From Prorocentrum cordatum (Eukaryota): a stretch of 53,713 bases of DNA. Under the pieces are notes generated by a model. The model was given only the letters and a program-made list of their open reading frames with translations. It was not told the origin of the DNA and searched no databases. Positions 10,234 to 51,147 of this stretch are shown in pieces. The position numbers were made by a program, and so were the translations under genes. The stretch is taken from the NCBI GenBank assembly GCA_963575745.1, contig CAUYUJ010000294.1:62001-115713 (forward strand), read 5' to 3'. Every line of letters starts with the position of its first letter. The stretch's first letter is position 1.

Positions 10234-11051
10234 CAAAGGTCACTCTGGAGATGGGCCCCTCTGACGTGCAGCCGAAAGCCCTGGGCGATGCCATACTGAG
10301 CCGAATGCGCAAACGGGAGGGGGGACAAAGGAAGGTAAACCCTCCGTGCACCTTTATAGGTCTCCTAGATGAGGTCTGAGTAGATGGGGTCCAAGGACCG
10401 CGCCACATCGGCGATTCATCGGCGACGTCGGCGATGCATCGGCGCCGTCGCAGTGGTGAAAATCGGGCTCCACATCGAGCCGCATCGGCGATGCATCGGC
10501 GATGCGGCGCGATCCTCCGACCCCACGTGCTCGGACCCCATCTGGGAGGCCTAGAACCTTTCAGGGCCCCTTGCCTGCAGCCCTCAATCCGCCCCCGCGT
10601 ACCAGGGCAGAACCTAAGAGGTGTTTTGCATGTTCGTTTTATGTGTCCGTTCTTCCTCGTTGTACTTTCGCTTCGCCTTGAACGCAGAAAAAAAAAACGA
10701 CACACCTAACAGCCCACCAAATGGCCAAACAACCGTTTAGGTCCAGCCCTTCCGTGGCCGCCCTCCTCTCCTCCTCCTCCTCCTCCTCCTCCTCCTCCTC
10801 CTCCTCCTCCTCCTCTCCTCCTCCTCCTCCTCCTCCTCCTCCTCCTCCTCCTCCTCCTCCTCCTCCTCCTCCTCCTCCTCCTCCTCCTCCCTCCACCACC
10901 TCCTCCTCCTCCTCCTCCTCCTCCTCCTCCTCCTCCTCCTCCTTCCTCCACCTCCTCCTCCTCCTCCTCCTCTCCTCCTCCTCCTCCTCCTCCTCCTCCT
11001 CCTCCTCCCCTCCTCCTCCTCCTCCTCCCTCCTCCTCCTCCTCCTCCTCCC

Positions 11052-11083
<32 letters not shown>

Positions 11084-25229: not shown

Positions 25230-27010
25230 TTTTTTTTTTGGGGGTCGGCGCGCACAAGGAGGTAATTAGGGGGAAGGGGGAAGGCTTCTTTGGAGGCTGC
25301 TTCTTAGACGGCGCGGGCCCCACATCTTATGACAAGGCCCGCGCCTTCTGGGAAGCAAGGGTGCTTCTGAGAAGCCCTCCCTCCTCTTCCACCTCCTCTG
25401 CGCGTCGCTATTGTTCCTCGACCCAAAGATGCAGCGTTAGACGGTACCCCCCCAGCCTAGACAAGCGCGCTCCACCCCCTGCAAACTAGCTGCTCGCTAA
25501 TGGCCTGTCTCCGCCGCGGGGGATTGACGATCCATTGCATCGGGGCAAGCACGTGTTTTCTCTGACGCTTGCGAGTGGAAACTTTGCGAACAGCTTGGCT
25601 ACAACCAAGAGTGACCAAGGCAAGAGTGAGCTGTAGTGCGCGTATTATGGGGCGCAAGGATCGCATCGCGCTAAACGATCGGGGGAATCCAATGAGCCCG
25701 CACCAAAGGTCACTCCGGCGAAGGGTCACCCTTGCGTGCGCAGTCGGACCTGGGCCAGAACTCACGAACACCATACCCTCCGTCGGCCAAAACAAACAGA
25801 ACATCCAAGGGTACCCTCCCCAGGGTGCACGAGAACATCCAACAAACACGAGGAACACCAGGGTACCCTCCCTGAACCGACCTCGATCTTATACCTCGGC
25901 TCGACTGTAGTCGAATAGCCCTGAGATCCGACGTTGCAACAAAAAATGCAAACTTGCAAAGTATCACGACCAGACCCCCAGACCCCATCTTCCTGTGTCC
26001 TTTCTCGAGCTGGATCGATCCAGTGCGCGAAACATTGAGCGACAACACCCGGCTCGAAAAACCTGAGACGCCAGGATCTCGGGGAGTGCAACGCGCTCGG
26101 AAGGATGGAGGAGGGCAAGGAGGAGGAGCAGGAGGAGGAGGAGGAGGAGGAGGGGGCGCAGGATGAAGGGGCGTAGGGGAAGGAGGAGGAGGACGAGGAC
26201 GAGGACGAGGAGGAGGAGGAGGAGGAGGAGGAGGAGGAGGAGGAGGAGGAGGAGGGGGAAGGAGGAGGAGGAGAGGAGGAGGAGGAGGAGCAGGAGAGGA
26301 GGAGGAGGAGGAGGAGAAAGAGGAGGAGGAGGCGGAGGAGGAGGAGGAGAAGGAGGAGAAGGAGGAGGAGGAGGAGGAGGAGCAGGAGGAGGAGGAGGAG
26401 GAGGAGGCGCAGGAGGAGGAGGAGGAGGAGGAAAAGGAGGAGGAGGGGGCCCCCGCGGCCGGCCGCCGGCGCCTCGCCCCTGCCGCGGCCGTGCCGGCCG
26501 CCCTCCCGCGCGCCCCAGGGCGGCGGCGGCGGCTGCCCCCACGCACCTCGGGCTCCGCGCCCGCTCGCGCGAGGGGGGCTGCCTCCCGCCCTCCTCCAGC
26601 CTCCCCCTTCCTGCGCCAGCCCTCCTCCTCCTCCTCTTCCTCCTCCTCCTGCCCCTCCTCCTCCTCCTCCTCCTCCTCCTCCTCCTCCTCCTCGTCCTCC
26701 TCGTCCTCCTCCCGCTCCTGCACCTCCTCATTATCCGTCTCCTCCTCCTCCTCCTCCTCCTCCTCCTCGTCCTCCTCCTCCTCCTCCTCCCCCTCCTCCT
26801 CCTCCTCCTCCTCCTCCTCCTCCTCCTCCTCCTCCTCCTCCTGGCTCAAGCATTGCCATCCAGGGAAGGCCCTGGGTGTTCGGACCCAAGCATTTTGCTT
26901 TGCCCAGTGCCAGCCTGGTCCGCCCCAGGCAGCGGCACAGCCACGTCCCGCACTAGTGCCAACAGTTGGGCCCATTTCCTGCGCGCGCTGCCGCACAAGG
27001 GAGTCAGGAG

Positions 27011-28169: not shown

Positions 28170-29874
28170 CAGAATTATAGGCTAGCCACCACCAGCGGAT
28201 CTCGCCGGCCTGCCGCGCATAAGTTTTTGCAAAACCCGCAGGCCAGAGAACCCACCATCGTTTGTGCCTGTGCCCAGGAGTGTAAGTTAGCCGAAGGCGA
28301 TAGCATTGTACAGCAGATACAATGGTGCGCGCCTCAAGGGTGGCTGGCCTACGCAACTCCTGCTACGGTGAACCCCGCCTTTGAGCTGGCTTCAGGAGCC
28401 GAGTTTTTGTTTCGGGAGGGTTTGGACCTGGGGGTTCAACCTCTGCTGTTTCCCTCGGATTGTGTGCCCGCTCGCTTGTCTGGAGAGACCCTTGTGATCC
28501 CTGGGTCCCCAAAATTCGCTTTGTGTTACGTATCTTCATGCCGCTGCGGGTCCAAGGCTAATTTAAACCGCGTGGCCACCAACGGCCAACCTCAGGATGA
28601 CTCAGTGTATTCAGTTACTTTAAAAGCCCCTCGCTGCATAGGCCCCAGAAGCTGCTTGCTCACAACCCAGTGGGCCCGCAAGCGCCAGAAGTGAGACGGC
28701 GCCAGACTGCCGCGAACGTGAATTATGCCTCGCAGTTGATTGATGATGCCCAACGGCCGCTCACCGATCAGCAGCCGACGTCGATCCTGGACCACGCGCA
28801 CTACACCCTGGCCCAGGACTTGGAAGCTACAATCAATAGAAGAACCAACGCGCCCTTTAAACCCAGTAAGTGTCCCAAGGATCAGCCCCCCCAGTTTAAT
28901 AAGGCCCCCGCGGTGGCCAAAGAGGCTCGTAGCAGAGCCAACGGGGCGGCGCTTACGGGCACGTTCAGAGGGTTGCGTAATCAAGTTCAGGAATGTAGGA
29001 GCTGTATTCAGGGCTGGAATGTGATTGAATTTCAGGACGCCCTGGACAGCCCGGAGGATTGCCCCGAGTCGTGCTCCACCGTGGTGCCCCTCAAGGAGGG
29101 GATTCAGGATGTCCGAGTAGCCGCAGGTTAGCTTCTTACTGAATTCCAGGTCGGCGTTCCAAATCAGACGCTGGCGCAGCAAGTGTTAGACGAGTTGCTG
29201 GAGCAGGTTACCAAGCACCTGCAACAGGAGCTGGCTGGCCACTATATTGTTGAATTGATCTACGAACAATCCTTGGGATGCGTGTTCAACAGCTCTACCG
29301 AAGATCAACAACACAGCGCCCAGGTCCCTTACGAGCTATATAACTATTACTATTATGTTTATGCTGACCGGCCTTATCTTGCGCATCGTGCTGTTGAGCC
29401 TGGTGTTTCAAGTTGTTTACTACAAATCATTCTATCCCAGTGCGCCAGCGAACACATCGTTTCATTGCAAGATTGTGCGGTCAGCGGCGGTAAACCTTGG
29501 AGGGGTGTTACTGCTGGCAGCATTGTGACCACGAGCCTTGTGCAGTTGTATATCATCGCCCCCTCGGTCATATGGACACAGGCCCATAGTCACAGTAGGC
29601 TCGCGACGCTCATTGATAATATGTTGATCCAGTGCCACGGCCGCAGTGTCAGCCTCATCGTCAGCCAGATGAACACAGCCGCCAGACGGAAGGCGAATTG
29701 CATCAGCCACGAGTCTAAGTGCCAGATGGACAGCAAGAAGACCCAGGTGCCAGCGTCTCACCAATCCCTGCAGGACCAGCTCAGGACTAAGATGGGGCCC
29801 CTTGCAGGCCCGAACCCTGATCGTTCGGGATCCAACCTGGGAAAAGAAACGGGGGCTGGCCGACCCCAGAGAAG
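28170..29874 (+). pseudogene. LINE ORF2 5' part: APE endonuclease and reverse transcriptase remnants
   Basis: CAQECKL...QWCAPQGWLAYATPA...ASGA is like the APE N-terminus. In 29183..29890, RGVTAGSIVTTSL (G..aG motif), LIDNM (decayed YxDD), SKKTQV and NLGKETGAG are RT-like. There are frameshifts and stops. Confidence 0.6.
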
Positions 29875-30572
29875 CTCGTATAGCTGCTAGTCGGCCGCGC
29901 AGGCCGGGAAAGAGCTAACACATTCGCAGATACATCTTCCTCCATCGTTGTATCGTGTGGGAGACAGTTGATGTAGGGATGTGACGATACAGGTTCGTTT
30001 TACTCGCTCAACTGCTGCAGTCCAGTTGACAGATCTTGAGCCAAATAACGACGGATGCTTTGCCCGTCCTGCTCTCTATGGCAGATTTGCCGCAAGAGCG
30101 CTGCAAGAAATTATATGTTACAACATACTACAAGTACAAGGGGCGAGAAAGGATGCGCGATTATCGTGGCGCCTTTGCGTGCCTTCGCACGCTCTTGTCG
30201 CACCGGCAATCCCACGGTCGCACCAGCAGACAGATGGTCGCACCAGCAGACAGATGGTCGCACCAGCAGCCAGGTGACGCCACAGCGTCGCGCGCTTCGG
30301 GGAGGTTGCTCAGGTTCTAGCGGAGGAGGGGATACACAAGAAAGAGAAATAGAGAAAGAGATTATGCTACAACGTGCTTTGGCGACAGAGCACTCGTCCC
30401 GTGACACCCGAGGGCGGGGGGACGTTGAGCAACCATCCAGTGACACCCGAGGGCGGATGGACGGTCGCTCAGTAGTGCAAGGCTGCTGCTACGTGATGCT
30501 CACTCAGAAACGCTCCATGATACAAATCATGCTGACACTTGTATCGTCACATGTTTCGGGGGTCTCTACGCA
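29875..30572 (-). repeat. 3' LTR (698 bp)
   Basis: Matches 39373-40070 at offset 9498 with no differences seen. ORF-track translations from both copies are identical. Sense termini are TGCGTAGAG...CTATACGAG. Confidence 0.97.
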
Positions 30573-30580
30573 CTCCCCCT
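30573..30580 (-). promoter_or_regulatory. Polypurine tract
   Basis: Minus strand AGGGGGAG immediately before the TG of the 3' LTR, which is typical of copia. Confidence 0.9.
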
Positions 30581-30623
30581 GATCTGGTGCTCAAAGTGCC
30601 GGATCATATGGTAGAGAACCCAT

Positions 30624-33600
30624 TCAAGCCGCCTTTGGCTTCTCTGTTGCACCAGGCGTCCAGCATGGCGGAGGGTACTCTCCCCGCATCGCCTTCCGGA
30701 TGTTCTCCAACACATCCGTGCTGGCAAGTTTTGTCAAGGCGTCTGAGACCATAGTCTTGGTCGGCTCGTGTCCGAGAAGAAGTCTGCCCTTGAGGAGTTC
30801 TTCCTGGATCCTGGAAGCCCTGACCCCGAAGTACCGGGTGCGCCAATTCGACCCCTGCTCCGCGATCGCCAGGGCGGCGTCGTTGTCCAGCAGAAGCTTG
30901 ATTGGCTCCAGCTCGATACCCCATTCCTCGAGTAACGCCCGGATGCCTTCGACGATCTGCCACGCGAGCGCTGCTGCACCTAGCTCCGCCTCTGCTGTGC
31001 TGAGAGAGCTGACAGTCTGGCGCGACGAGCGCCACAGCAGCGGAGCTCCTGCCCAACTCAGGAAAACACCTGACTGAGCTCTGGTACTCACTCCTGCATA
31101 GCCAGCGTCTGACCAAGCTACCAAAGAAGCCTCATTTCCACCGCTGGGCAGAAATAGCCCACAGTCACGTGTACCCTTAAGGTATCGCAAGATTTTCTTC
31201 GCCAGCTGCTCGCTCCACTTGGCGTGCTTGCTCAGGGCGGAGGCTAACAGGCAGGTGAAATAGGCGAGGTCAGCCCGTGTTCTTGTGGATAGCCAATTAA
31301 ACTCTCCTGCGTAACTCTGAAGCTCGCGAAGTTTGTCTTGACCTGGCTGGTCCTCCTCTCCCGGGGGGTCCATGGTGACTGTGTTCAACGCCTTCGCATC
31401 GGACATACCATGCTTCTCAAGGATCATATCAATGAAGTGCTTCTGGTGGAGGACAATCCCATCGGCGAGCCGCTGGATCTGGAGGCCAAGAAACGTGATC
31501 TCGGTGCCAGCCTCAAGCTTCACCTCTTGCTTCATTGTCCAGTGCTTGGCCAGGGCTTCCTTGAAGTTCGTCCGCATCTCGTCCTGCGGGCAGGCCAGCA
31601 AGAAGTCGTCTACGTAGACAATGAGCAATCCGAGCACTACATTCACGCCCTTCTCGGTTATCTTCCACACCTGACTGTCCTCAGCGCACTGTTCGAGGCA
31701 ATAAGTTTTGCCCTGAGCCTTCCAAGTAAGATTCCGGAACACCCGGTCCCGCTCTTTGCCCCAAGCCCTGGGTGCGACCCTCAAGCCGTACACTGCACGT
31801 TGTAAGACCCACACTTCTCCGGGTACTACGAGCCCGGCTTCGACGAAGGCTTTGGGCGGATTCACCAGGACGAGGACGGTCTCAGGGAGCGGCGCGTACA
31901 TGAATGCACCTGACACGTCAAGAGTGCCGAAGTCCCATCCTCGCAGGAGTCCCATACGTAATCCGGCGAGCAAGCTGGACGTCTCGGCTTGCGCTGTCCA
32001 CAGGGCCTGGCTGGGGTCGTTGCGCTCGAAGTTGCCGCACACGACTGCCCGGACTCTGTAGATGCCTCCCTGCTTCTTCGTGTACACGAGCTTCATCGGC
32101 AAGGGAGGGCCATGGCGTCTCTTGTCCGCCTCTGTGGCGGTCCTGTATACATTTCGCTGAACGAAATTCTCGACGTATTCCTTCTCTGTGGCAGCGCGCC
32201 ACTGCTCAGCTTCACGCCCAGTGGTCTCGCGTACTTCGGCAGCTGGGACTGTCACAGACCCCGGGCCGTCCATGAGATTGACATCGTGTTCTGTAGACAA
32301 CCCATGAACAACGTCGGGAGGCACATCGACCGCCTCGCCGTGAGCTCCGGTCAGGAGCGCCCTCACGGTGACCATCCTCTCCGTCACGGAGCGTTTTTCT
32401 TTGAACCTCTTACGGCGGTGAGGCTGCATGAGGACTGATGTTCCGGGAAGTGGGTGCTCTTCGTCCTCTTCGTTCTGCTCCTCTGGCAACGCTGCCACGG
32501 CCTTCTCCGTAGCAGGCGAATCGTCATCACCACCATCAGGTCCTGCGTGTTCTTCGTCCAGAGACTGGCCAGTGATGTGCACAAGCCCCGAGCCGCTGAT
32601 CCACTCGTCCGCATCGAAATCTGTGTCAGACTCGGTGTCCGTCTGAACGGGGGCGTGGTCTGGGCTGCATGTTGTGTCTGACCAAGTGCCTCCAGTGGCT
32701 CCCACAGAAGACGGTCCTGCATGGCTGCTCGAACACTCAGACATGGCCACAGCAGCGTGCGGGAAGATCGCCAGACGCCGATGTACATCATCAGGTACCT
32801 TCTGTATTGTTATTTTTCGGTGGGAAGGTCTCCCAGGCAAACTCGCTGACGAAACAGATGCTACTGCAGCTTGGAATGACGGGTCCTCCATAAACGGGAC
32901 GATCTGTGGAGAGTTGCCGAGCTGCTCAACCAGTTCCTCTAGCCTAACAAGGACTGGAGGCGGCTTTTCTTCCACGTTCAGATCTTCAGGGGGGTGCTCG
33001 GGCAACGACTCGTCTGGCAGCACCGCTGAAGCAGGAACAGGACCTCCAGGGGCACGATTGCCTGCATGATCATGCTCTGGAAAATCCACAGCTGCAGCGT
33101 CGAAGAGGGATGCTTGTGGAGGAGGCATCGCCGCAATCGGCGTTTCGTACTCGTCCCAGCTGGCCTTGACGATGACAAGCTCGTCTTGCGTCAGCCCGGC
33201 CGTCTGGATGTTGACCTTCGGCACGACCTTCCCAGACTGGTACACCCACAGAGCATCCGGAATGTTCTCACATGGGCCAAAACACGTGGCCGGAAGCGCT
33301 CTCGGAAGGAACGCGTTGCGTGGCGCTGGCGTAAGGTTGACCATCACACGTGTACCAAAAGGCACTTTAGGCGGCCTTGCTTCTCCGGCGTCCACCCGAC
33401 TGAGATGAGCTGCCGCCAAGACTGCCATGCCCCACCACCGTGTGGGGAGCCGGTTCAGGCTGAGAAGGTATCTGCCTCTGGGTTTGATGACTCCCACAGA
33501 TGCCTCAGCAGTGCCATTGCTGCTGGGGTCGTACCCCTGTGTCGTAGCGAAGTGGATAGCATGGTACTTTAGATAATCAGCCAGCGCTGCATTGACGAAC

Positions 33601-36600
33601 TCGCCGCCGCGGTCTGAATGAAGCCGATACACGATCCTATTCGGTAAGTTTCCAAATTCAGACCGTATCTGGGCCAAAATTTCTTGGATCTTGGCCGGGG
33701 CCTCGTTTTTCTTGACCAGTAGGGCCACGTAGTACAACGCCTTCACATTGTCATCCGGAGGCTGGTCGGCAGCACCAGGCGGTAAGTCAGCCGCCGGCTG
33801 GGCCATGCCAATTTCTGCCGCACCCTCACCAGGCGGCTCCTTCGGAAACTTCACCGTGAGCACAAGAAAGTAGTGTGCCGGCGAAGACCCAACCTTCTGG
33901 CCTGGCTGCGGGGTGGCCTCGTGCGGGCCGCTGAGGTCCACGCTAGCCACTCCAAGGCTCTGGTTATGGTACCGTCTGTGGTAGTGTTTCCTTTGGGCCG
34001 CCGCTTGCCAGACAGCGTCTCGTTTGTCGTAGGTTTTCGGTTGCACCGCGCCTTCTGGGAGCTCCCCCACGATCCTCGGCACTGCGGGGGCACCAGGCTG
34101 TTCTGGAGGCGGTTGTGGTGCAGCCTGTGGTTCCTGTGGTGGTGCAGCTTGTAGTACTTGAGGTGGTAGTTCCTGTTGTGGTGGAGCCTGTTGTGGTGGA
34201 TCCTGCACTTCGTTCCTCTGCTCCCCCTGTGTCGCCGCCGATGCCAACCCGAAGCGCGGCTTGTGTTGGTTCAGCCACGGGTCGACCAGCCTTGTCCAGA
34301 CATGCAGGTGGCCACGTTGCGCCGCCACTGTCTTCAAGCTGTCCAGAGCTGCGCTGATGGAGTCGACTTTTCGGGATACTCCCTCGTCTGTCCAGCAACC
34401 GGAGGTGGACAAATCCTGCCCCCCCTCCTCCCGATTCATTCGCGGGCGGCCCGATGGCGAAAGACTCCCCCCATCGGCGGTGGTCAGGGGTACTTCGTTG
34501 AGGATGTCGTCGCAGAACTCGTCCGGGTAGGATGCTGATTGCGCTGTCCTGGACCCTCCGGGGCCAGAACCACGAAGGTGCAGGTGGGCATGTGACCCGT
34601 CACACAGCACATCTTGCTGCTGCGACTGGTTCGACTGGAGCTCCGTCCCCTTGCGTATCGGATAGCCTTCAATCGTAGCTCCGCGTTGGCATTGATCGAC
34701 TCGTCTCTTGGACCTGCCAAGGCCCGAAAGAAATCTGAGCGGCGATTCGGCGGAGTCGAATATGTCCGAGAAAGCAGGGTTCTCCAGTACATATTTCCTG
34801 TCCAAGAGTGTCTGCACGAAGCAGCACATTCCAATGAACTGTAATACTGGGAGCTCCGACTGGCGCATGGCAGGGCGCACTTCTGGTGCGAGGCCCCTCG
34901 CGTTCGCGCCCCACGGGTGGCAGTTGGGAGCTGCAAAGAGCATTGCTACTCCGATGAACAGCAGCGCGTGCAGCAAATGCACCTGGTCAACGAAGCGGGA
35001 CAAATTCCAGCCATACCTGTAGTCGACTGGTGGCATATGCGCAACTCCTTGTGCGCGAGCCCTGGTCGACAAGTTGCTGGATCCTGAACACCATTCCCAC
35101 AAACGGAACTTCGGCCCCTCCCCGTGACACCCGAGGGCGGGGGGGAGGAACCACCTCGTGACACCCGAGGGCGGGGAGGTGTCCGAATGTGGTTTTGGGT
35201 ATGAGTCGGCGGGCCTTCGCTCGAGCAGAGTCTGCGCCTGTTGCTCCCCCGGCTGGCACTTCTCCTCAAACCAGTCGGTGAAGGAGTCCGGGCCGACGTG
35301 CTCGGAGGTGTCCTGGTAGTACCTGTCCGGGATGCACTTGTACTTCCTCACCATCTGGGTGACCGTCTTGCTGTCCACCTCGCCTTCGAGATGCTTCAGC
35401 GAGTCGCGGATATCCCGTGTAGTAAGGGCCATCGTGCGCGCCACGCGGGCGCTGCTGACTACCGGAACAGTCGGTTTCCCATCCCTGCCTGGAGCGTCTT
35501 TGTTGGGAAGGTCCTTGAACAAGCGTTTGAATCCTTGCACTGATATGTACGGCAAGCAGCCCCACATATGCACCTCCACACTGTTGCCCTTGGGCGTCTT
35601 CAAGTAGGAGGAACCAATGGCGTACTCGCAGCCACGCGTCCATAGCCATCCCAATGGCAGAAGGTCGATGTTGTCATCTCCAGCCCTCTTCTCCACCCTG
35701 CAGATGGGGACGCCCTTCGGCCCCTGTCCTGTCTGGCACGGGCAGCTCCCCCAGGCGAGTTTCAAGGAGTCGGTCCAGCTGGAGGTCTCCTTGCTCGGCT
35801 CCTGGTGCACCAGGTAAACGTTGGCCCAGCTGTCCAGGCCGACCGCGCCCAGCGGGAACTTGTCTCCTTCAGGGCCGGCAGCGGCCGCGATGCAAGACTT
35901 GCTGGTGGAGCCCGGGCCCTTGTTGCCGTCGTAGCCCTTGCCCCCGCCGTCTTTCTTCCCTTTCGTTTTGCCTTTACCGCCTTTGTCTTGGGCAGCCTTC
36001 TGTTGAGCTTCGTCCCGTCTCTTGCGGTACTCCGTCCAGTTCTTGTCGAAGTCAGGGTCTTTCCCACCGCCAGGGGCCGTGCACTCTTTCGTGCTGTGGC
36101 CCTCTTCTCCACATATGAAACACCGATTCGCATTGGTAGGGATTCCCTCGTGCTTGAAGAAGCAGTTGATGCCTCGACTGCAGGACCCCTTTTTCCAATT
36201 GCGGCACTCCGGTGCCCATTTGGACGTCGTGGTAGAAACCTTCTCCCTGATGCCTGCTGCGGCTTGTGGTGCCGCCGAATCGCCTTGGCCACTGGTGGCA
36301 TCCGCATTCGCCTTGGCAGCTGCGGCTCTCCTTGCCTGCTCCTTCTTCTGGGTCTCCTGTCTCTTCTGGCTCTCCGTGAGAGGCAAGCCTGGGTTGCCGG
36401 TGCTCTTGCCCTGCAGCGCCAAGTACGAAAGCTCCCCCTCGGCGAACTCTGCTACTTTCCTCATGGAAGCGACGCTGATGACCTGTGGCAGGCCCAGGTT
36501 GTTCTCCAAGGCGACCCACCGGAGCCTTAGGTTCTCGTCTGCGTGCGCAAACACTCCAGAGAATATGCTTCGCATAGCTGTATACAAGATGGTCACGTCT

Positions 36601-39443
36601 GGAATTGCCATTCCCAGCTGACGGCATCTCCGGGCAGCCGCCCAGTACTTCTGGAGCTCGTTCAAAGCAGTCTCTGCCTTGGAACAGGGCTGAGGGTCAG
36701 TGAGCTGTTTAAGCACCGACGCCTTCTCATCCGCCGCTCCGGAGCAGCAGAGCTTCAGGAGTAAGTAGAGAATGTCCTGGGCCTCGTCGCGGATCCCCTG
36801 GACACCTCTCTGCGTCAGCTGTTTCTTCAGCTGCTGGGGCAATGAGGCCAAGAGGCGGGGCTTGATCCACGTCTCTATCTGGCACCATTTCTGCTGGTTC
36901 CTCGGCCCCACTGTGATCCCCTCCCTGGTCATGATGGGAGTAGATAGGTATCTGGAATGGGTCTCTTCGGCCGCCTTCCAACACCACACCCACCACTCGA
37001 CCACTGCTGGCCCTGCGGCCTCCAGAATCTGGAACACCGCGTAGCGCCACTTTCGAAGGTGCTCCGGGCGGTCTTGGATCGCCCCGAGCTCCAACACTGG
37101 GAATTCCCCGACACAGGCCTGGACGGCCCGGAGGATGAAGTTCAGCTCGGCTGAAGAGAGACTCGTTGACACCGGGACGACTGTCTCCCCCAGTCCGTGG
37201 GAGCTGCTGCCCTGCCCACCTGTGGGCGCCGCCCCGGCTTGCGGAGCGTGGCTCTGAGGATCTCCCGGTGGAGCTTGTCCAGGGTAGTGGGCGCCATCCC
37301 CTGACCCTCCACCAGCCGACCCTGCGAAGAACGAGAAGACATCATCAAAACATCGTGGAGCTTCTTCATGCTGCGGTGCACGCTGGTGCCATACCTGTAC
37401 GGCCAGACTCGGGTCTCCCGTGCCTCCCAGCAGCATGTGTTCCTGTGTCCTGACGCCTCCTCCCAGAGCTGCGATTCCCCCTCCTCCTTGAGTCCCCACA
37501 GGCCTAGTGTCGAAGGCCGCCAAGGGCAGGTCTTGGAAGGGCGCGAGCCCTGGTGGTACTGGTGCAGTCTGGGATCCTTGACGATGCACTCCTTGCTGCA
37601 GTCTGGAATGCGTGTTGGGGATGTCCCGCTGCGTGTGGGATGCCAGTGCTGCTGCGGTGAGGTCGCCCGGCTGCGCTTGCACAGCCACGCGATCTGCCAG
37701 CGCTGGCACCTGCGGCCCCATTGAGAAGGGGGCTCGTTGTGGATTGGGCAACGACAGTGGTGTCGCTGACGATGCGTCAGTAGTTAACTGATTCACACCC
37801 ATGACATTCTGCCAGAAATCGTCGCCTTCTCCCTGCTCTGTGCCCCCATCCCGGGGTGTGCTACCCGAGCTGAGGACGTAGTTTTGTACTCCCCGGCGCC
37901 CTGGCTCAGCCGCAGTCGGCTGCTCCGCGCCGCCGGAGCACTGGCCAGACACTTGAAGGTTGTGGTCCTCCGTGCCGGGGCTCCAGTAGTCGTTCCAGTT
38001 CTGAACCTCCGCCTCGATCTTATCAAGACGCGCAGCCATCTCTGCCAGCCCTGTGGTGCACGCGTGGTCGGTGCGGGTCACAGCCAGCTCAATGGACTCG
38101 ACTTTCTCGAGTACCTGCTTGAGGATCTCTGGAATGTAGTCGTTGGACGTCTGGGGAACTTGTTCCCGTCCAGGCGGAGGTGCGCGCGCAGACTGCCCCG
38201 TGACACCCGAGGGCGGGGGGACAGCCAACGCGCCTTCCTCGACCGACAGTCCCGTGACACCCGAGGGCGGGGGGACAGCCAGTGCGCCTTCCTCGACCGA
38301 CAGTCCCGTGACACCCGAGGGCGGGGGGACAGCCAGTGCGCCTTCCTCGACCGACAGTCCCGTGACACCCGAGGGCGGGGGGACAGCCAGTGCGCCTTCC
38401 TCGACCGACAGTCCCGTGACACCCGAGGGCGGGGGGACAGCCAGCGCGCCTTCCTCGACCGACAGTCCCGTGACACCCGAGGGCGGGGGGACAGCCAGTG
38501 CGCCTTCGTCTGCTGCAGTGGTGCTGGCCTGAGGCGCGAGCGCAGCCTGCTGCGCCACGCCAGGCACTACTTCTGGCCCCTCTGCAGAGACGAATGATTG
38601 ATCCGCCGTGGAACCGTGCTTCTGAGCGTAGTATGTAGAGCCTGGAAACCCTACACAATCTCCAGTCCGGAGGTGTGGTAGATGACCGGTATTCCTTGAA
38701 TGGCAAGCCAAACAGTGTCCCTCCATCCTTGCCCTCGCAGGGGTCATGGTGATCAAGGGGTTCGGCCTTGCACCAAGAGAATGAGGACGCATCCTCCGCT
38801 TCGAGACTGGCGCTACTGGGTGTGGAGATGGAGGCACCGGCACTTGCAGCGCAGGTGTTGGTACTGCTTGTGCGAGTTCGTCTAACGCTGCGTGTGATGT
38901 AGGTGCCGCCTCTGTTGGGGCGTCTTGGAGAGCCCGTTGGGTGCGGTCGCGGCCCCGAGGGCTGGCACTGGCTACTGCTGCCACTGCGCCACTCGCAAAG
39001 CCCACTGCGGCTCCAGCCACGGCAACGGCAGCTCCCCCCACCGCGGCGCCCACAGCTGTGGAAAGCCCCAGGGCTTGTGTTGCTCTGGTCTTCCAGGTCG
39101 CCAGCTGCTCCACGTAGTAGCGTTTCCACTGCTCCCTCATCTGTTGGTCGTGCTGTTGGGAGTAGTTGACGATGACCTGCCTCATGCACTCGCCGCAGAA
39201 TGGGACGCCCTGGAAGCGCTCCAGCTGCAAGCAAGATGCGTGCCCATAGGACCCGCACTGGCTGCAAGTCACCGGGTCCGTGACCATGGTGTGGCACTTA
39301 GGGCAATCGCACTGGAAGCCCCTGTACGTGCTGAGGTACTCGACGCACTGCAGTGACGTTGGGTTATGAGCCCTCGTATAGCTGCTAGTCGGCCGCGCAG
39401 GCCGGGAAAGAGCTAACACATTCGCAGATACATCTTCCTCCAT
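30624..39443 (-). CDS. Copia Gag-Pol polyprotein, 2939 aa: PHD - Gag(CCCH, CCHC) - PR - C5-MTase-like - IN - RT - RNase H
   Basis: PHD CPKC..CSQC....H..C..CGEC (about 39186-39305). CCCH CRNWKKGSCSRGINCFFKH (about 36150-36206). CCHC CFICGEEGHSTKEC (about 36081-36123). Protease LDSWAN (about 35830). MTase-like (about 34495-35110). Integrase VDLSGP / HSDRGGEF / SNGTAE (about 33250-33960). RT LDVSGAF, YGLRVAPRAW, YVDD (31605-31616). RNase H WSDAGYAG, LSTAEAE, LDNDAA. Confidence 0.97.
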   Translation of the reverse strand: MEEDVSANVLALSRPARPTSSYTRAHNPTSLQCVEYLSTYRGFQCDCPKCHTMVTDPVTCSQCGSYGHASCLQLERFQGVPFCGECMRQVIVNYSQQHDQQMREQWKRYYVEQLATWKTRATQALGLSTAVGAAVGGAAVAVAGAAVGFASGAVAAVASASPRGRDRTQRALQDAPTEAAPTSHAALDELAQAVPTPALQVPVPPSPHPVAPVSKRRMRPHSLGARPNPLITMTPARARMEGHCLACHSRNTGHLPHLRTGDCVGFPGSTYYAQKHGSTADQSFVSAEGPEVVPGVAQQAALAPQASTTAADEGALAVPPPSGVTGLSVEEGALAVPPPSGVTGLSVEEGALAVPPPSGVTGLSVEEGALAVPPPSGVTGLSVEEGALAVPPPSGVTGLSVEEGALAVPPPSGVTGQSARAPPPGREQVPQTSNDYIPEILKQVLEKVESIELAVTRTDHACTTGLAEMAARLDKIEAEVQNWNDYWSPGTEDHNLQVSGQCSGGAEQPTAAEPGRRGVQNYVLSSGSTPRDGGTEQGEGDDFWQNVMGVNQLTTDASSATPLSLPNPQRAPFSMGPQVPALADRVAVQAQPGDLTAAALASHTQRDIPNTHSRLQQGVHRQGSQTAPVPPGLAPFQDLPLAAFDTRPVGTQGGGGIAALGGGVRTQEHMLLGGTGDPSLAVQVWHQRAPQHEEAPRCFDDVFSFFAGSAGGGSGDGAHYPGQAPPGDPQSHAPQAGAAPTGGQGSSSHGLGETVVPVSTSLSSAELNFILRAVQACVGEFPVLELGAIQDRPEHLRKWRYAVFQILEAAGPAVVEWWVWCWKAAEETHSRYLSTPIMTREGITVGPRNQQKWCQIETWIKPRLLASLPQQLKKQLTQRGVQGIRDEAQDILYLLLKLCCSGAADEKASVLKQLTDPQPCSKAETALNELQKYWAAARRCRQLGMAIPDVTILYTAMRSIFSGVFAHADENLRLRWVALENNLGLPQVISVASMRKVAEFAEGELSYLALQGKSTGNPGLPLTESQKRQETQKKEQARRAAAAKANADATSGQGDSAAPQAAAGIREKVSTTTSKWAPECRNWKKGSCSRGINCFFKHEGIPTNANRCFICGEEGHSTKECTAPGGGKDPDFDKNWTEYRKRRDEAQQKAAQDKGGKGKTKGKKDGGGKGYDGNKGPGSTSKSCIAAAAGPEGDKFPLGAVGLDSWANVYLVHQEPSKETSSWTDSLKLAWGSCPCQTGQGPKGVPICRVEKRAGDDNIDLLPLGWLWTRGCEYAIGSSYLKTPKGNSVEVHMWGCLPYISVQGFKRLFKDLPNKDAPGRDGKPTVPVVSSARVARTMALTTRDIRDSLKHLEGEVDSKTVTQMVRKYKCIPDRYYQDTSEHVGPDSFTDWFEEKCQPGEQQAQTLLERRPADSYPKPHSDTSPPSGVTRWFLPPALGCHGEGPKFRLWEWCSGSSNLSTRARAQGVAHMPPVDYRYGWNLSRFVDQVHLLHALLFIGVAMLFAAPNCHPWGANARGLAPEVRPAMRQSELPVLQFIGMCCFVQTLLDRKYVLENPAFSDIFDSAESPLRFLSGLGRSKRRVDQCQRGATIEGYPIRKGTELQSNQSQQQDVLCDGSHAHLHLRGSGPGGSRTAQSASYPDEFCDDILNEVPLTTADGGSLSPSGRPRMNREEGGQDLSTSGCWTDEGVSRKVDSISAALDSLKTVAAQRGHLHVWTRLVDPWLNQHKPRFGLASAATQGEQRNEVQDPPQQAPPQQELPPQVLQAAPPQEPQAAPQPPPEQPGAPAVPRIVGELPEGAVQPKTYDKRDAVWQAAAQRKHYHRRYHNQSLGVASVDLSGPHEATPQPGQKVGSSPAHYFLVLTVKFPKEPPGEGAAEIGMAQPAADLPPGAADQPPDDNVKALYYVALLVKKNEAPAKIQEILAQIRSEFGNLPNRIVYRLHSDRGGEFVNAALADYLKYHAIHFATTQGYDPSSNGTAEASVGVIKPRGRYLLSLNRLPTRWWGMAVLAAAHLSRVDAGEARPPKVPFGTRVMVNLTPAPRNAFLPRALPATCFGPCENIPDALWVYQSGKVVPKVNIQTAGLTQDELVIVKASWDEYETPIAAMPPPQASLFDAAAVDFPEHDHAGNRAPGGPVPASAVLPDESLPEHPPEDLNVEEKPPPVLVRLEELVEQLGNSPQIVPFMEDPSFQAAVASVSSASLPGRPSHRKITIQKVPDDVHRRLAIFPHAAVAMSECSSSHAGPSSVGATGGTWSDTTCSPDHAPVQTDTESDTDFDADEWISGSGLVHITGQSLDEEHAGPDGGDDDSPATEKAVAALPEEQNEEDEEHPLPGTSVLMQPHRRKRFKEKRSVTERMVTVRALLTGAHGEAVDVPPDVVHGLSTEHDVNLMDGPGSVTVPAAEVRETTGREAEQWRAATEKEYVENFVQRNVYRTATEADKRRHGPPLPMKLVYTKKQGGIYRVRAVVCGNFERNDPSQALWTAQAETSSLLAGLRMGLLRGWDFGTLDVSGAFMYAPLPETVLVLVNPPKAFVEAGLVVPGEVWVLQRAVYGLRVAPRAWGKERDRVFRNLTWKAQGKTYCLEQCAEDSQVWKITEKGVNVVLGLLIVYVDDFLLACPQDEMRTNFKEALAKHWTMKQEVKLEAGTEITFLGLQIQRLADGIVLHQKHFIDMILEKHGMSDAKALNTVTMDPPGEEDQPGQDKLRELQSYAGEFNWLSTRTRADLAYFTCLLASALSKHAKWSEQLAKKILRYLKGTRDCGLFLPSGGNEASLVAWSDAGYAGVSTRAQSGVFLSWAGAPLLWRSSRQTVSSLSTAEAELGAAALAWQIVEGIRALLEEWGIELEPIKLLLDNDAALAIAEQGSNWRTRYFGVRASRIQEELLKGRLLLGHEPTKTMVSDALTKLASTDVLENIRKAMRGEYPPPCWTPGATEKPKAA
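34495..35110 (-). other. C5 cytosine DNA methyltransferase-like domain within the polyprotein
   Basis: Motifs in the expected order: I LWEWCSGSS, II/III VDYRYGWNL, IV FAAPNCHPW (Cys at 34920-34922), VI VLENP (34776-34784), VIII VDQCQRG..IRKGT, X AQSASYPDEFCDDI. Confidence 0.8.
38190..38507 (-). repeat. Six 54-bp tandem repeats in gag (EEGALAVPPPSGVTGLSV)
   Basis: Near-identical units with cores at 38200, 38254, 38308, 38362, 38416 and 38470. Confidence 0.95.
39361..39373 (-). promoter_or_regulatory. PBS position: GGGCTCATAACCC, tRNAiMet anticodon-arm sequence in sense orientation
   Basis: Immediately follows (and overlaps by 1 nt) the 5' LTR on the coding strand. It is the reverse complement of the GGTTATGAGCCC-type half-tRNA PBS. 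Confidence 0.6.
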
Positions 39444-40070
39444 CGTTGTATCGTGTGGGAGACAGTTGATGTAGGGATGTGACGATACAGGTTCGTTTTA
39501 CTCGCTCAACTGCTGCAGTCCAGTTGACAGATCTTGAGCCAAATAACGACGGATGCTTTGCCCGTCCTGCTCTCTATGGCAGATTTGCCGCAAGAGCGCT
39601 GCAAGAAATTATATGTTACAACATACTACAAGTACAAGGGGCGAGAAAGGATGCGCGATTATCGTGGCGCCTTTGCGTGCCTTCGCACGCTCTTGTCGCA
39701 CCGGCAATCCCACGGTCGCACCAGCAGACAGATGGTCGCACCAGCAGACAGATGGTCGCACCAGCAGCCAGGTGACGCCACAGCGTCGCGCGCTTCGGGG
39801 AGGTTGCTCAGGTTCTAGCGGAGGAGGGGATACACAAGAAAGAGAAATAGAGAAAGAGATTATGCTACAACGTGCTTTGGCGACAGAGCACTCGTCCCGT
39901 GACACCCGAGGGCGGGGGGACGTTGAGCAACCATCCAGTGACACCCGAGGGCGGATGGACGGTCGCTCAGTAGTGCAAGGCTGCTGCTACGTGATGCTCA
40001 CTCAGAAACGCTCCATGATACAAATCATGCTGACACTTGTATCGTCACATGTTTCGGGGGTCTCTACGCA
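39373..40070 (-). repeat. 5' LTR (698 bp)
   Basis: Copy of 29875-30572. It contains the polyprotein ATG (39443). Confidence 0.97.
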
Positions 40071-40075
40071 AGAAG

Positions 40076-41832
40076 ATGGGCGAATGTTCGGAAACCTGCG
40101 GAGCGTCTTGGAAAGATGCGTAACATACATAACAAGGTCCGTATGTTGAAACGCGCTGGGGGTTACACTCAGAATGGCCTTGAAGCGGCCACTACCCCTG
40201 GAGTTGAGGTCGCTGGCACCAGCGGCACTCAACTTGTTGCAGCTAGGTCGCAGTTTCCTGCTGCCGCGGGCCCGAGACGCTCGACTCGCAGCAGCAGCTT
40301 GGCGTGGCTCATCCTCCAAGACCCCTGTGGAAAGCTACCCTAGGCCCCCCGCCCTTAGGGGGGCAACGTTTAGTTTGGGATGCGTCCACCCGCCCGCTCT
40401 TAGCCGTGGCCAGTTGCCCGCAGCTGTGGGTCTGGACGAAAAACATCCCCCCGATTGTTCCTAAATCGTGGGGTCCCGCCTGGGGCCCCCTCTGTGTGGC
40501 GTCGCTTTCGCGTAAACGTGTTGGTTGGAAAATCCAAGGGCCGTTTCCCTTTGTGACTACCCCAGGTCTTGAGTATTCACTCCCAGGACACATCCCCACC
40601 TTCCTCCGAATGCCCATGGATCACGACTGGCACGGCCAGCTCGCGTCCACGGCGGCCGACAAGTTCGACCACGCGGACGCTCAGCTAGATATCGCTGCTG
40701 CTCGGACTGCCCTCTCGCCAGACCGCGCTGGGCACCAGAATGGCACCCTGCGCACCGACCTCAACCAAAGTATCTGGGCCATGGAAAGAGCCAGAACAGC
40801 TGGATATGAGAAAAATGAATAAAGCAGAGCCACTCACTTCTTGGCTGCGGAGCTTCTGCGTTTACTTGAGCCCCCTCCCCTGGCCCCTCAATTGCAACTT
40901 GGGCCCCCGCTGGTTCCTGAGTTCCGTTGAGCGCCTCCTCTTGGCTCTCGTTTGTCTTTTGGGGAGTTTTTGGTGTGCTCAAGTAGGAAGCAACACACAC
41001 GAGGCCTTCAGCGAAGGGGAAATGTATAAAGATGGCAGTTGCACCAAGCACGCGAACTATGTGCTCAACGCTGCTGGTATCGCTTTTGCGTGTATCAGAG
41101 ATGGTGAAGTTTTTTACCACATTCAGAGGCCGAGGCGGCCAGATTTTTTACTCTGACCGCAAGGGAGTGCTGAGGCTGCATCAAGGCACCGAGTACCCCC
41201 GTGTCCGCCGCCTGGCGGAAGGTAAACATGATGAGGACCGTTTCACGAAGGCAGCTACGCACAAGGGCGTTCAGCCCAGACAAGATGAGATGTGCAATTT
41301 CGATGAATATATGAAGTTTGTTTCTAAGTATCTCAAGTATGTGGCGCAGGCTCTGGGAGAGTGGCTCGTGACCGCCCCCAGCAAGTACAAAGGTCTGGCC
41401 GCCCCAGAAAGGAACCTTACTCCCCCCGCGGGTGCTGCCTCTGCCCTGGCGGCGTGGCCGCCGCCGTCGGTAGGGCATCATCCTCCTCCGTCGCCTGTGC
41501 CTCACGAAGTCTCTTGGGAGCCCAGAGAGCCTTGGGGTATTCACGCGTGGGCGAAAATTTCGCGGTATTCTCGCTGCACTCTGTGTAGGGTACAGACGAA
41601 GTCATTCAAACAGAGTGCAGGCTTTTGCGGCCAAGGAATGACCAGGCCACCACAAGCAGATGTCAAACCTGTGCATGATAATAAAGGCAAAGAATTCTTT
41701 TATTTTGAGCACCTTGAGCAGCCCACGGGTATTCGGGTGTGCCACAAGTGTGGATCCTACTCCGAGGGGTTGGGTCGAGGGCTCACTAGAGGCTACGGCA
41801 CTCGAGTGAGCCACCAAGGCGCGGCCACTTAG
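40076..41832 (+). pseudogene. LINE ORF2 3' part: post-RT region and RNase H remnants
   Basis: NKVRMLKRAG, GTLRTDLNQSIWAMERARTAGY, EMYKDGSCTKHANYVLNAAGIA (like YTDGS...RAG of RNase H) and Cys-rich CTLC / CHKC segments, fragmented across frames. Confidence 0.55.
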
Positions 41833-42229: not shown

Positions 42230-42600
42230 ACGGAAAAAGGGCGGGTCGTTTTCAAAATGTGGCTTGGCTGGGCGCAGCGCACATTCGTTCTAAACATTTA
42301 CAACAATTTCATGGATTGAGGCCGGTCCGTTTTCAAAATGTGACTTTCGCTGGAGCGCTCCGCACATTCGCTGTAAGCATGTGCAAGAGCTCTACGGATT
42401 GAGGCTGGTCCGTTTTCAAAGTGTGGCTCTCACCTGAGCGCTGCGCACATTCGTTCTAAACATGTGCAAGAACTATACGGATTGAGGGCGGTCCGTTTTC
42501 AACATGTGGCTCTCGCCTTATTGCCGAGTGCACTTGTCTTAGACACGTGCAAGAGCTCTACGGATTGAGGGCGGTTCCTTGTCAAAATGTGATTACGACA
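42230..42600. repeat. Diverged tandem repeat, about 83-bp unit, about 5 copies (further decayed units at about 43080-43320)
   Basis: GGATTGAGG.CGGTCCGTTTTCAAAATGTG recurs at about 42313, 42397, 42479 and 42562. Confidence 0.75.
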
Positions 42601-44257
42601 AATTCAAGAATTTACCAGATTCTCATGACCAGCGTACCAAACATGGGGTATGGGAAGGATTCAGGATTATGAGGGTGCAAGCAGTTACGACGACTTGCGG
42701 TGTTGAGATCCCAGGAATGGCGTTCTGGCGCGATTCTGGATCGTCGAGACCCAACAGTCAGGCTGATCCGCGGCCTTGGAATCCCGAGGACAATGTTTTG
42801 GCATGCTTCAGGGTCTTCAAACGGTTGTCTTCCAACGAGGCAGCCCCCTCAATGGAAATGAACCGTTGTAGGGGTCTGTGAAAAGGGAGCTAGGGGGGAG
42901 GGTTTATTCCAACATCGTTGATGACTTTTGGGTTTACACTGGTCCTATTGCTCCTCCTCCTGCGCCTCCCCCTCTCAACTCCTCCATCCGTTTTCCTTCT
43001 GGAGAACTCCTCCCTGTACCCCGAAACGTGTCGGCAAGGCGGACCAAGCGCTTCGCCTGAAAATTCCGCACCATCTACGATCCTGAAACTGAGAAATTGC
43101 AATAACTTCGCGGATGGATGGCGGGCCGTTTCCAAAATGTGATTCTCGCCTTAGCGCCACGCACACTCGTGATACGCTTTGCAAGAGTTTCACAAATTCA
43201 GAACGGGTCCTTTTGGAATGTGGCGTTCGCTATCGCGTGGTGCATTTTCGCCGTAACAGTTTACATCACATTCAAAGACTTTTATCGTTGACATTGAGTC
43301 GGGTCGGCCGCGCCAACATGCGCAGCAACACCACGCAAACATCGTGCTACACACCAGAACGCCGAGAATTCGAAAACGAACCGGGTATCGAGCCAGTCGA
43401 AATCGATATCAGCTCGGATCCACCGGATCGAAGAGGGCCCTGGGAGGAGGGCGAGGAGATCCGATCCCCGAACGACCCCCTGGTGACTGCATCAGGGAAG
43501 CACGCCTGCCCACTCGACAAGTCCTCCTGCTGTTCACCCACCTTAATATTAGGTCTGGCGTGTGTTCCTGCAGGCTGATCTCGGACGAAGAAAACAAAAC
43601 ATACAAGAATATTCAAGTACCAAAAATCCTCCCCATCCTATTGTTGACTATGTTTGTATATTCCTCCTGCAGAGGGAAAGGCCCGACTTCACCTGAATCC
43701 TCGTTCTCTCCCCCGAGCCTAGAATGTCGATCTACGAGCCTGTCGACCCACGGAGTTCGATCCTCGAAACCTCGAGGCTTCGAAACCACGGAAACTCGAA
43801 ACCTCGACCCTCTCCCCTCGATCCGCGATCCCCGAAGCGCGCTCCACGCAACCTCGCTTTGGCGGCGAGCGAGGGGGCGAAGTGAGGAGGATAAGCAGCT
43901 CTCAGGAGGCCCGGAGGTCACCCGGCCTCCTGAGAAGGTTTCTAAGCCTTCCCCGACGACGCAGAAAACCTCTCAGAAGGCGCGATGGCTTCTGAGAAGT
44001 CCCGCCGCCTTTTGAAAAGGCCCTCCTCCACTTCCTCCTCCTCCTCCTCATCATAAGCATCATCATCAGCATCATCATCATCATCAGCATCATCATCATC
44101 ATCATCAGCATCATCAGCATCATGAGCATCATCAGCATCATCAGCATCATCATCATCAGCAGCATCAGCATCATCATCATCATCACCATCACCATCACCA
44201 TCACCATCACCATCACCATCACCATCATCATCATCATCAGCATCATCATCATCATCC

Positions 44258-44290
<33 letters not shown>

Positions 44291-50892: not shown

Positions 50893-51147
50893 GCAAGGAC
50901 CCCCGAACCCTCTGGGAGGGGACCTGAGTCGGGAGGGCCAACAACGTCAGGACCAGGGGGTCTCTTCTGCCGATGCAAGGCAAGGACCCCCGAACCCTCT
51001 GGGACGGGACCCAAGTCGGGAGGGCCAACGACGTCAGGACCATGGGGTCTTTTCTGCCGATGCGAGGCAAGGACCCCCGAACCCTCTGGGAGGGGACCTA
51101 AGTCGGGAGGGCCAACAACATCAGGGCCAGGGGGTCTTTTCTGCCGA
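50893..51147. repeat. Three tandem 87-bp units
   Basis: GCAAGGACCCCCGAACCCTCTGGGA.GGGACC..AGTCGGGAGGGCCAAC... at about 50893, 50980 and 51067. Confidence 0.9.

Follow-up and report, generated by a model that had tools for sequence, protein, structure and literature searches.

Retrotransposons that carry a DNA methyltransferase of their own upset the view of methylation as a purely host-side defence. The article text of de Mendoza et al. 2018 (PMC5890265) describes SymbioLINE-Dnmt and SymbioDIRS-Dnmt3 in Symbiodinium and KnitGypsy-Dnmt3 in Klebsormidium, all found by way of the Pfam family PF00145, with Ka/Ks below 0.2 and de novo CG activity. The EpiLTRs of Cymbomonas and Euglena were added to these cases by a preprint that names the previous ones as well and in whose text the word 'Copia' is absent (bioRxiv 10.64898/2026.05.21.726589), and DNMT3 members in 'LTR Copia and DIRS' elements are mentioned, citing the 2018 work, in the text of PMC12344493. 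The examples described so far are long interspersed nuclear elements (LINE), DIRS and Gypsy-type elements with ordinary, Pfam-detectable DNMTs, to which a Copia-type element is now added. It lies in a stretch of 53,713 nucleotides from Prorocentrum cordatum (GenBank assembly GCA_963575745.1, contig CAUYUJ010000294.1, positions 62,001 to 115,713 of the forward strand; this whole stretch is called the window), and it is an intact, very recently transposed Ty1/Copia-type long terminal repeat (LTR) retrotransposon of a marine eukaryote, whose polyprotein includes a compact domain resembling the C5 cytosine methyltransferases (C5-MTases).

The reading preferred here, at a probability of roughly 60%, is that this domain is a working methyltransferase dependent on S-adenosylmethionine (SAM) and using C1508 and E1554 of the polyprotein. 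Activity is read from the conserved residues because these are the ones that serve cofactor binding and chemistry, which fold alone would not explain.

The methyltransferase-like domain

An earlier note on the window had placed C5-MTase motifs at 34495..35110, within an uninterrupted open reading frame (ORF) of 2939 residues. The ORF is confirmed, and WCSGSS (residue 1451), APNC (1505), ENP (1554) and DQC (1583) all lie in that interval and in that order. The domain is there too, on the minus strand and with corrected boundaries: the proposed frame is off by a few bases, direct translation running into a stop, and the delimited extent is 34473-35120.

39443..30624, minus strand: single uninterrupted Gag-Pol ORF of 2939 residues, from ORF translation
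34473..35120, minus strand: compact C5-cytosine-methyltransferase-like domain, residues 1442-1657, delimited by profile, predicted fold, fold matches and 465 relatives
35082-35084, minus strand: G1454
34920-34922, minus strand: C1508
34782-34784, minus strand: E1554
34512..34691, minus strand: Cys/His cluster C1585...C1614...H1620...C1644, which takes the position of a target-recognition domain (TRD), picked out by conservation; candidate zinc site
35316..35345, minus strand: K-Y-x-x-x-P-(D/E)-x-Y-Y motif, residues 1367-1376, which precedes the methyltransferase-like core in all clades in an alignment of 24 upstream regions

Sequence searches used the 261-residue segment 1420-1680 as query. 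Run exhaustively against 1.84 billion representatives, phmmer returned 465 relatives at E<=1e-3, 212 at E<=1e-10 and 38 at E<=1e-30, with alignments spanning query residues of about 20-240. Given these 465 relatives, and given that the motif residues form the most conserved columns, the segment is not a product of chance. Conservation was read from a profile alignment of 165 domain sequences, 150 of them from representatives, 14 from metagenome loci and one from the window, in which the best conserved columns are the methyltransferase motif positions; the motif names I, II, IV, VI and VIII are those in use for the C5-MTase family. The glycine loop of motif I (FxGxG) and the acidic residue of motif II are both present, as G1454 (118/119) and D1474 (129/140). 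In motif IV, read as P1506-N-C1508 in the window, the Pro is kept in 143/148, the Cys in 138/146 and the nearby W1511 in 141/144. The Glu of motif VI, E1554, is kept in 132/134, the next residue being N (71) or Q (50) and the one after that P (96) or S (31). Further downstream come Q1584 (107/111), the adjacent C1585 (111/111) and K1598 (106/111), a conserved Lys 14 residues past the Gln of motif VIII, and then C1614 (97/102), H1620 (96/100) and C1644 (80/91). Among the 72 sequences that span all six of the G, D, C, E, Q and C positions, 59 keep every one.

The only significant profile links of the family lead to two PHROG families: 14 of 35 members match phrog_757, 'DNA methyltransferase', with a best E of 3e-7 and in one case spanning positions 9-225 of the 247 in the profile; for phrog_2882 the count is 6 of the 35. 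Dcm of E. coli, a textbook C5-MTase, matches the same two profiles weakly (E 0.055 and 0.14), its phrog_757 match reaching from motif I to ENV. An hhalign comparison of the family with a narrow Dcm alignment (10 sequences, at least 74% identical) is not significant, at E 0.09-0.13 and a probability below 1%; taken for register only, it is collinear: the Gly loop with G1454 falls on F-A-G-I-G-G, C1508 coincides with the catalytic Cys in P-C-Q, and E-N-P lines up with E-N-V. In the ESM-Atlas the first cluster (0.96) was automatically labelled 'DNA (cytosine-5-)-methyltransferase family protein', and the nearest cluster with a Pfam family, of 217 residues and mostly viral, has PF00145 on 12% of its members. 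Other searches returned little: phmmer of the segment against PDB sequences gave only a chance ubiquitin match (E 2.1), a single-sequence search of a word-indexed database gave 6 matches, all unnamed, NCBIfam gave nothing relevant for the 35 members, and tblastn of one relative (P0007) found no match in 50,697 phage records.

The fold was predicted with AlphaFold2 (AF2). With a 105-sequence alignment the model is a beta-alpha-beta sheet ending in a hairpin, with a predicted local distance difference test score (pLDDT) of 88.2 and a predicted template modelling score of 0.83; the prediction from the single sequence, at pLDDT 45, is uninformative. In the model the Gly loop comes after strand 1 and the Cys after strand 4, and the acidic residue and the Glu stand at the ends of strands 2 and 5, respectively. 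Foldseek gives 50 PDB matches at E<=1e-3, and all 40 of the rows listed are C5-MTases (DNMT2, DNMT3A/B, DIM2, DNMT1, MET1 and EhMeth), headed by DNMT2 chain 9hgm with a best E of 1.8e-5. VIA-align, which is independent of Foldseek, was run against 48,161 representative chains and likewise fills ranks 1-13 with C5-MTase-family chains at Z 9.4-11.3, generic Rossmann-fold short-chain dehydrogenases/reductases (SDRs) reaching at most Z 9.1. These ranks include DNMT3A (4u7t; Z 11.3, root-mean-square deviation 3.8 Å, 185 aligned residues), DNMT3B (Z 11.2), M.HhaI (10mh; Z 11.1, 4.0 Å, 191 aligned residues), DNMT5, M.MpeI, DNMT1 and MET1, and the matches set model residues 22-240 against the whole catalytic domain of the targets. 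The model thus has the class I SAM-methyltransferase fold, as predicted structures go, and is most similar to solved C5-MTases. The earlier note had staked its reading beforehand on such a fold, and on the Cys and the Glu being kept in sister elements, and on both counts it has held up.

Closer still are compact viral proteins of 199-225 residues, the best Foldseek matches in BFVD, with E-values from 5e-9 to 1e-6 and target-normalised template modelling (TM) scores of 0.54-0.65. The top match, A0A0A0RJX0 (210 residues), has E 5e-9 and a TM-score to the target of 0.65, and a 'putative cytosine DNA methyltransferase' of Tetraselmis virus 1 (218 residues) and a 'putative DNA methylase' of Lactococcus phage P087 (212 residues) are among the others. 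Profiles and models together support the view that the domain is a distant superfamily relative of C5-MTases, closest to compact viral putative cytosine methylases. Since its nearest structural relatives are these compact proteins of phages and algal giant viruses, a viral origin is likely, to the extent that modelled structures can tell, and would be independent of the DNMT3 captures in other retrotransposons.

The host element, its polyprotein and its relatives

That the window holds an intact, young copia element with identical LTRs, as the earlier note had it, is borne out. There is one copy in the window, with the following parts.

29875..40070, minus strand: complete Ty1/Copia-type LTR retrotransposon, 10,196 bp, with identical LTRs at its ends and a flanking 5-bp target-site duplication
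39373..40070, minus strand: 5' LTR, 698 nucleotides, with TG as first bases on the element strand and the ORF ATG (39443) inside
29875..30572, minus strand: 3' LTR, 698 nucleotides, 0 mismatches to the 5' LTR (100% identity)
29870..29874 and 40071-40075: target-site duplication AGAAG, 5 bp, from flank sequence and an empty-site contig
30573..30583, minus strand: presumed polypurine tract adjoining the 3' LTR, read from the flank and named for its position; the element strand reads ...CAGGGGGAG and then TG, the purine run GGGGGAG directly abutting the LTR

Contigs from four public sequencing runs were compared with the element, X1 (the best), X2, X5 and X10. A contig of run X1 joins 29869 to 40071 and skips 10,201 nucleotides, with 5 letters common to both sides; as this contig, with its single AGAAG, is the empty site, the insertion is polymorphic. 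A second junction, from 29874 to 40087 with 11 other letters between the sides, may mark either a further allele or a paralogous site. Run X2, a marine metagenome, and runs X5 and X10 contain relatives at 85-99% identity; the latter two are guessed to be RNA, and the relatives in them do not demonstrate transcription.

The ATG of the ORF lies 71 nucleotides inside the 5' LTR, and residues 1-23 (39373-39443) recur in the 3' LTR; translation thus continues across the end of the LTR and the place where a primer-binding site is expected. By eye, and without comparison to tRNAs, a canonical primer-binding site beginning with TGG is absent from 39345-39372 of the minus strand, just past the 5' LTR. 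The first bases past the LTR on the element strand are GGCTCATAACCC, which to our eye resembles, in sense orientation, the anticodon arm of tRNA-Met with its CTCATAA loop.

Within the polyprotein the order is zinc knuckles, methyltransferase-like domain, integrase, RVT_2 reverse transcriptase and RNase H.

38137..38564, minus strand: 54-nucleotide tandem repeat of about 6 copies in the N-terminal part of Gag, encoding the 18-residue repeat EEGALAVPPPSGVTGLSV, from a repeat search
36078..36212, minus strand: Gag zinc fingers zf-CCCH (residues 1078-1098) and zf-CCHC knuckle (1107-1122), Pfam E 0.0019-0.0063, below gathering score
35454..35861, minus strand: presumed protease region, residues 1195-1330, with G-L-D-S-W-A-N at residues 1202-1208
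33414..33962, minus strand: integrase catalytic core, approximately residues 1828-2010, with Pfam rve at 1906-1973 (E 0.011, below gathering score)
31380..32108, minus strand: Copia-type reverse transcriptase RVT_2, residues 2446-2688, a Pfam match of 76.5 bits (cut-off 31.6) at E 3.3e-21
30744..31241, minus strand: RNase H-like C-terminal region, approximately residues 2735-2900, placed by position and by eye; no Pfam match

The earlier note had put the methyltransferase-like domain between protease and integrase. Its place between the Gag zinc knuckles (residues 1078-1122) and rve is secure, and the integrase half of the claim stands; the protease half is unconfirmed, no Pfam protease family matching anywhere in the ORF, nor in the 136 residues of the stretch 1195-1330 at E<=10. 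For this stretch the ESM-Atlas gives a lead to Pol_BBD, the beta-barrel domain of Copia Pol, whose score of 0.86 falls short of the 0.9 mark. Retropepsins carry D-S/T-G-A, with Gly where G-L-D-S-W-A-N has Trp. The window and the 5 long relatives closest to it all keep G-L-D-(S/T)-W-A-N, which in the window's clade lies about 240 residues upstream of the methyltransferase-like core. The motif (35820-35840) may mark an unusual protease active site, or may not belong to a protease at all; a position of the domain between protease and integrase is plausible.

Several other stretches of the polyprotein deserve mention. The 54-nucleotide repeat core is 96-100% identical between copies, and one X1 contig is without 12 nucleotides at 38178. 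Near the N-terminus, residues 33-90 (39174-39347) are rich in Cys and His with several C-x2-C pairs; a PHD finger was considered there and is not supported, Pfam giving PHD only at E 6.3, a zinc ribbon at E 0.27 and no significant family. The roughly 170 residues from the methyltransferase-like domain to the integrase core (about 1660-1830; 33960-34470) are Pro/Gln-rich and, by eye, are without the H-H-C-C zinc finger usual at the integrase N-terminus. The Cys/His cluster of the methyltransferase-like domain occupies the place where that finger would be expected.

The same arrangement recurs in relatives. Among 20 long relatives scanned, RVT_2 is found in 5 and rve in 4, always downstream of the methyltransferase-like domain and, for rve, at the matching relative position, so that all 6 of the 20 counted with any such match show this order; 13 of the 20 have neither match, one of these having only a C2H2 finger. 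A metagenome scan yielded 14 loci with a GC content of 46-59%, and the order zf-CCCH, methyltransferase-like domain, rve, RVT_2 is repeated, as far as the contigs reach, in five of the seven loci scanned (L004, L005, L007, L012 and L014). The ORFs of L004 and L005 run to 3109 and 2913 residues, and the pair of zf-CCCH and zf-CCHC is also present in L004 and L012; the open frames of L006 and L016 had no Pfam match. The domain keeps its position while its identity between relatives falls to about 27-30%. The earlier note had called for dN/dS across family copies. What is available, between L005 and L007 (80% identical in the domain), is a domain dN of 0.125 and dS of 1.39, hence a ratio of about 0.09 that is approximate, as it comes from one metagenomic pair with dS>1; by the same comparison, integrase windows give 0.07-0.14 and linkers 0.20-0.28. 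The domain is thus no one-off capture: a large Copia-type lineage has kept it as a stable module under selection.

A deeper clade of relatives (P0059, P0063, P0076, P0088 and P0089) has E-Q-P for E-N-P. In these a conserved motif, C-E-R-C-Q-L-G-R ... E-H-T-x-x-P-G-E-C-R-Y-G, comes after the methyltransferase-like domain; it looks like an extra zinc finger, and the window's clade does not have it.

The rest of the window is largely repetitive. Satellite arrays occupy 21177-22605 (101 nucleotides, 14 copies, 92% matches), 23742-24967 (a 77/154-nucleotide family), 42240-42591 just right of the element (83 nucleotides, 4 copies) and 50893-51147 (87 nucleotides, 3 copies). Long microsatellite-like tracts of TCC, CCT, AGG and TCATCA lie at 10762-11163, 26102-26842 and 44048-46067; their strand skew is extreme (at 44-46 kb, -0.72 for GC and -0.54 for AT), and they give rise to many spurious long ORFs. 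No Pfam family matches any of 12 long ORFs elsewhere in the window, and an Rfam search of the window found no match. A fragment of the dinoflagellate spliced leader was looked for and not found.

Possible activities of the domain

If the domain is a working methyltransferase, the mechanism can be sketched. The Gag-Pol polyprotein would carry, upstream of its integrase, a member of the C5-MTase fold of about 215 residues, which would attack cytosine C5 in a SAM-dependent manner through the nucleophile Cys1508 with the help of Glu1554. The domain would be made with the integrase or tethered to it, and would methylate either the element's own complementary DNA (cDNA) or the DNA into which the element integrates.

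Several results weigh against this reading. In sequence searches, no Pfam family matches the segment at E<=10, and the match to PF00145 to which the earlier note had looked failed to appear in any of 105 aligned family members at the same threshold. The 35-member family profile finds nothing among PDB sequences, and its 29 matches in the word-indexed database include none with a precomputed Pfam domain and so no bridge to PF00145; the window's own segment matches no PHROG family at E<=1. As to structure, the Foldseek TM-scores to DNMTs in the PDB are only 0.30-0.46, the VIA-align margin of C5-MTases over generic Rossmann folds, about 2 Z units, is real but modest, and the AF2 model seems to lack one of the beta-alpha units found in the canonical sheet. 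The motifs are also irregular. The second Gly of the SAM loop is G in 64, S in 28 and A in 27 of 120 sequences, and Ser in the window copy. Motif IV is P-x-C across the family (P-N-C in the window), without the canonical Pro-Cys dipeptide. Motif VIII, expected as Q-x-R-x-R, has the Gln and an invariant Cys in D-Q-C-x-x-G and no conserved arginines. In place of a proper TRD there are some 30 residues, from K1598 to R1632, which hold C1614, H1618 and H1620. The evidence of purifying selection is an approximate figure from a single pair. Finally, the observed/expected CpG ratio is 0.81 in the element and 0.79-0.82 in its flanks, which is no signature of self-methylation; none would be expected in so young a copy, and the comparison is not informative.

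The earlier note had described a compact variant with almost no TRD and with divergent motifs (WCSGSS, and NC for PC), and this description proves to fit the family as a whole: the short TRD is common to it, and Asn is the commonest residue between Pro and Cys (47/148). The odd features of the window copy are family traits and not decay of the copy.

The alternative that survives best, though it is unlikely, is that of a pseudo-enzyme, in which the C5-MTase fold is kept and methylation lost, the domain serving the integrase as a DNA- or chromatin-binding or targeting module, as DNMT3L serves DNMT3A; perhaps it recognises cytosine or 5-methylcytosine, or tethers the intasome. P-x-C for P-C, the missing arginines of motif VIII and the near absence of a TRD would all suit such a module, as would a Cys/His cluster of a type typical for binding modules and a position directly upstream of integrase in all relatives examined. 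Against this, the residues for cofactor and chemistry are the best conserved of all at only about 30% identity (Gly 118/119, Asp 129/140, Cys 138/146, Glu 132/134), whereas in known pseudo-methyltransferases such as DNMT3L cofactor and catalytic residues are lost.

Less probable again is an active methyltransferase that works, like Dnmt2, on RNA. It could methylate the tRNA that primes the element or the genomic RNA of the element, with a role in replication or in evading host sensing. DNMT2 does come first in Foldseek and is among the top VIA-align rows (6fdf, Z 9.9), a minimal TRD would suit a structured RNA substrate, and no TGG primer-binding site was seen; yet DNMT3A/B and M.HhaI score equally high or higher in VIA-align, and the closest viral models are annotated, under putative names, as DNA methylases.

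That the domain is a generic Rossmann-fold nucleotide-binding domain, binding NAD(P) or SAM as a member of another class, with merely convergent motifs, is very improbable. SDR-type proteins at Z 8-9.1 over the same residues, and the lack of any significant sequence match to PF00145 or to C5-MTases in the PDB, give it what standing it has. Two independent structure searches, however, put only C5-MTases first, and BFVD returns cytosine methylases. The PHROG 'DNA methyltransferase' profiles match 14/35 members and are matched by E. coli Dcm as well, and a Cys after strand 4 with a Glu ending strand 5 is exactly the C5-MTase arrangement.

A neutral passenger, a fragment of a viral or host gene captured without function for the element, is hardly credible: retrotransposons do acquire foreign sequence, and any function of the domain is putative, but the domain holds the same position in deeply diverged elements, shows a dN/dS (one pair) as low as that of integrase together with conserved key residues, and is intact in a recently transposed element.

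A wider proposal builds on the reading of the domain as an active methyltransferase. There may be a large, unannotated Copia-type class in marine eukaryotes with an active 'mini-DNMT' of viral ancestry, distinguished by P-x-C and by a zinc knuckle for a TRD, beside or fused to integrase, with which the element methylates its own cDNA or insertion site; retroelements would then have captured cytosine methylation a fifth time, independently and with a distinct mechanism. We hold the proposal tentatively, at somewhat worse than even odds. Surveys of eukaryotic DNMTs and of epigenetic modules borne by transposable elements would then have missed the domain, because PF00145 does not detect it. This compact, divergent branch of the C5-MTase superfamily, unseen by standard annotation, numbers hundreds of representative clusters in marine genomes and metagenomes. 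An active domain would offer a minimal cytosine methyltransferase scaffold of about 215 residues with almost no TRD, a system in which to test whether an element methylates its own cDNA as it integrates, and a reason to re-survey protist DNMT repertoires with structure-aware methods. The window copy, being intact and polymorphic, is a good starting construct for experiments.

Relation to known systems

A literature search of article texts, those of PMC5890265 and of the 2026 preprint among them, found no description of a Copia-borne, PF00145-negative methyltransferase-like domain. A DNMT borne by a retrotransposon is known; the element class, the domain lineage and the architecture found here are apparently new.

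As an element, the retrotransposon of the window has much in common with other Ty1/Copia elements, including the SmTCL Ty1-copia elements of Symbiodinium, whose description lists reverse transcriptase, integrase, RNase H and LTRs only (PMC5776459). It shares with them the LTRs, the 5-bp duplication, the integrase upstream of RVT_2, the terminal RNase H and the CCHC knuckle of Gag. It differs in its 2939-residue ORF that starts inside the 5' LTR, in the extra methyltransferase-like domain and CCCH finger, in the lack of a protease family match and in D-S-W-A for D-S/T-G-A.

With the classical enzymes M.HhaI, Dcm, DNMT3A/B and DNMT1 the domain shares the fold, the order of motifs I, II, IV, VI and VIII with a C-terminal helix, and the conserved Gly, acidic residue, Cys, Glu and Gln. 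Unlike them it has no PF00145 match, reads P-x-C, is without arginines in motif VIII, apparently has one beta-alpha unit fewer in its model and makes do with a TRD of about 30 residues. The compact viral putative C5 methylases (phrog_757, phrog_2882, A0A0A0RJX0, Tetraselmis virus 1 and Lactococcus phage P087) stand nearer in size and provide both the best structural matches and the only significant profile matches, but they are free-standing viral proteins, whereas the domain here is part of a retroelement polyprotein. We know of no characterisation of their activity.

With the known retrotransposon DNMTs, finally, the likeness is one of design: a C5-MTase-fold domain in frame, under purifying selection, with proposed methylation of retrotranscribed DNA (PMC5890265; 10.64898/2026.05.21.726589). 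According to the texts of these sources, the known domains belong to DNMT3, to a DNMT4-sister clade or to orphan clades, sit in LINE, DIRS and Gypsy/chromovirus elements and are detectable with PF00145; the 'LTR Copia' members in the text of PMC12344493 are of DNMT3 type and not of the family described here. The present domain, by contrast, sits in a Copia-type element upstream of integrase, is invisible to PF00145, combines P-x-C with a Cys/His cluster and is nearest to compact viral proteins. Given that the Symbiodinium and charophyte retrotransposon DNMTs were found by PF00145, as the text of PMC5890265 reports, it is not a relative of theirs.

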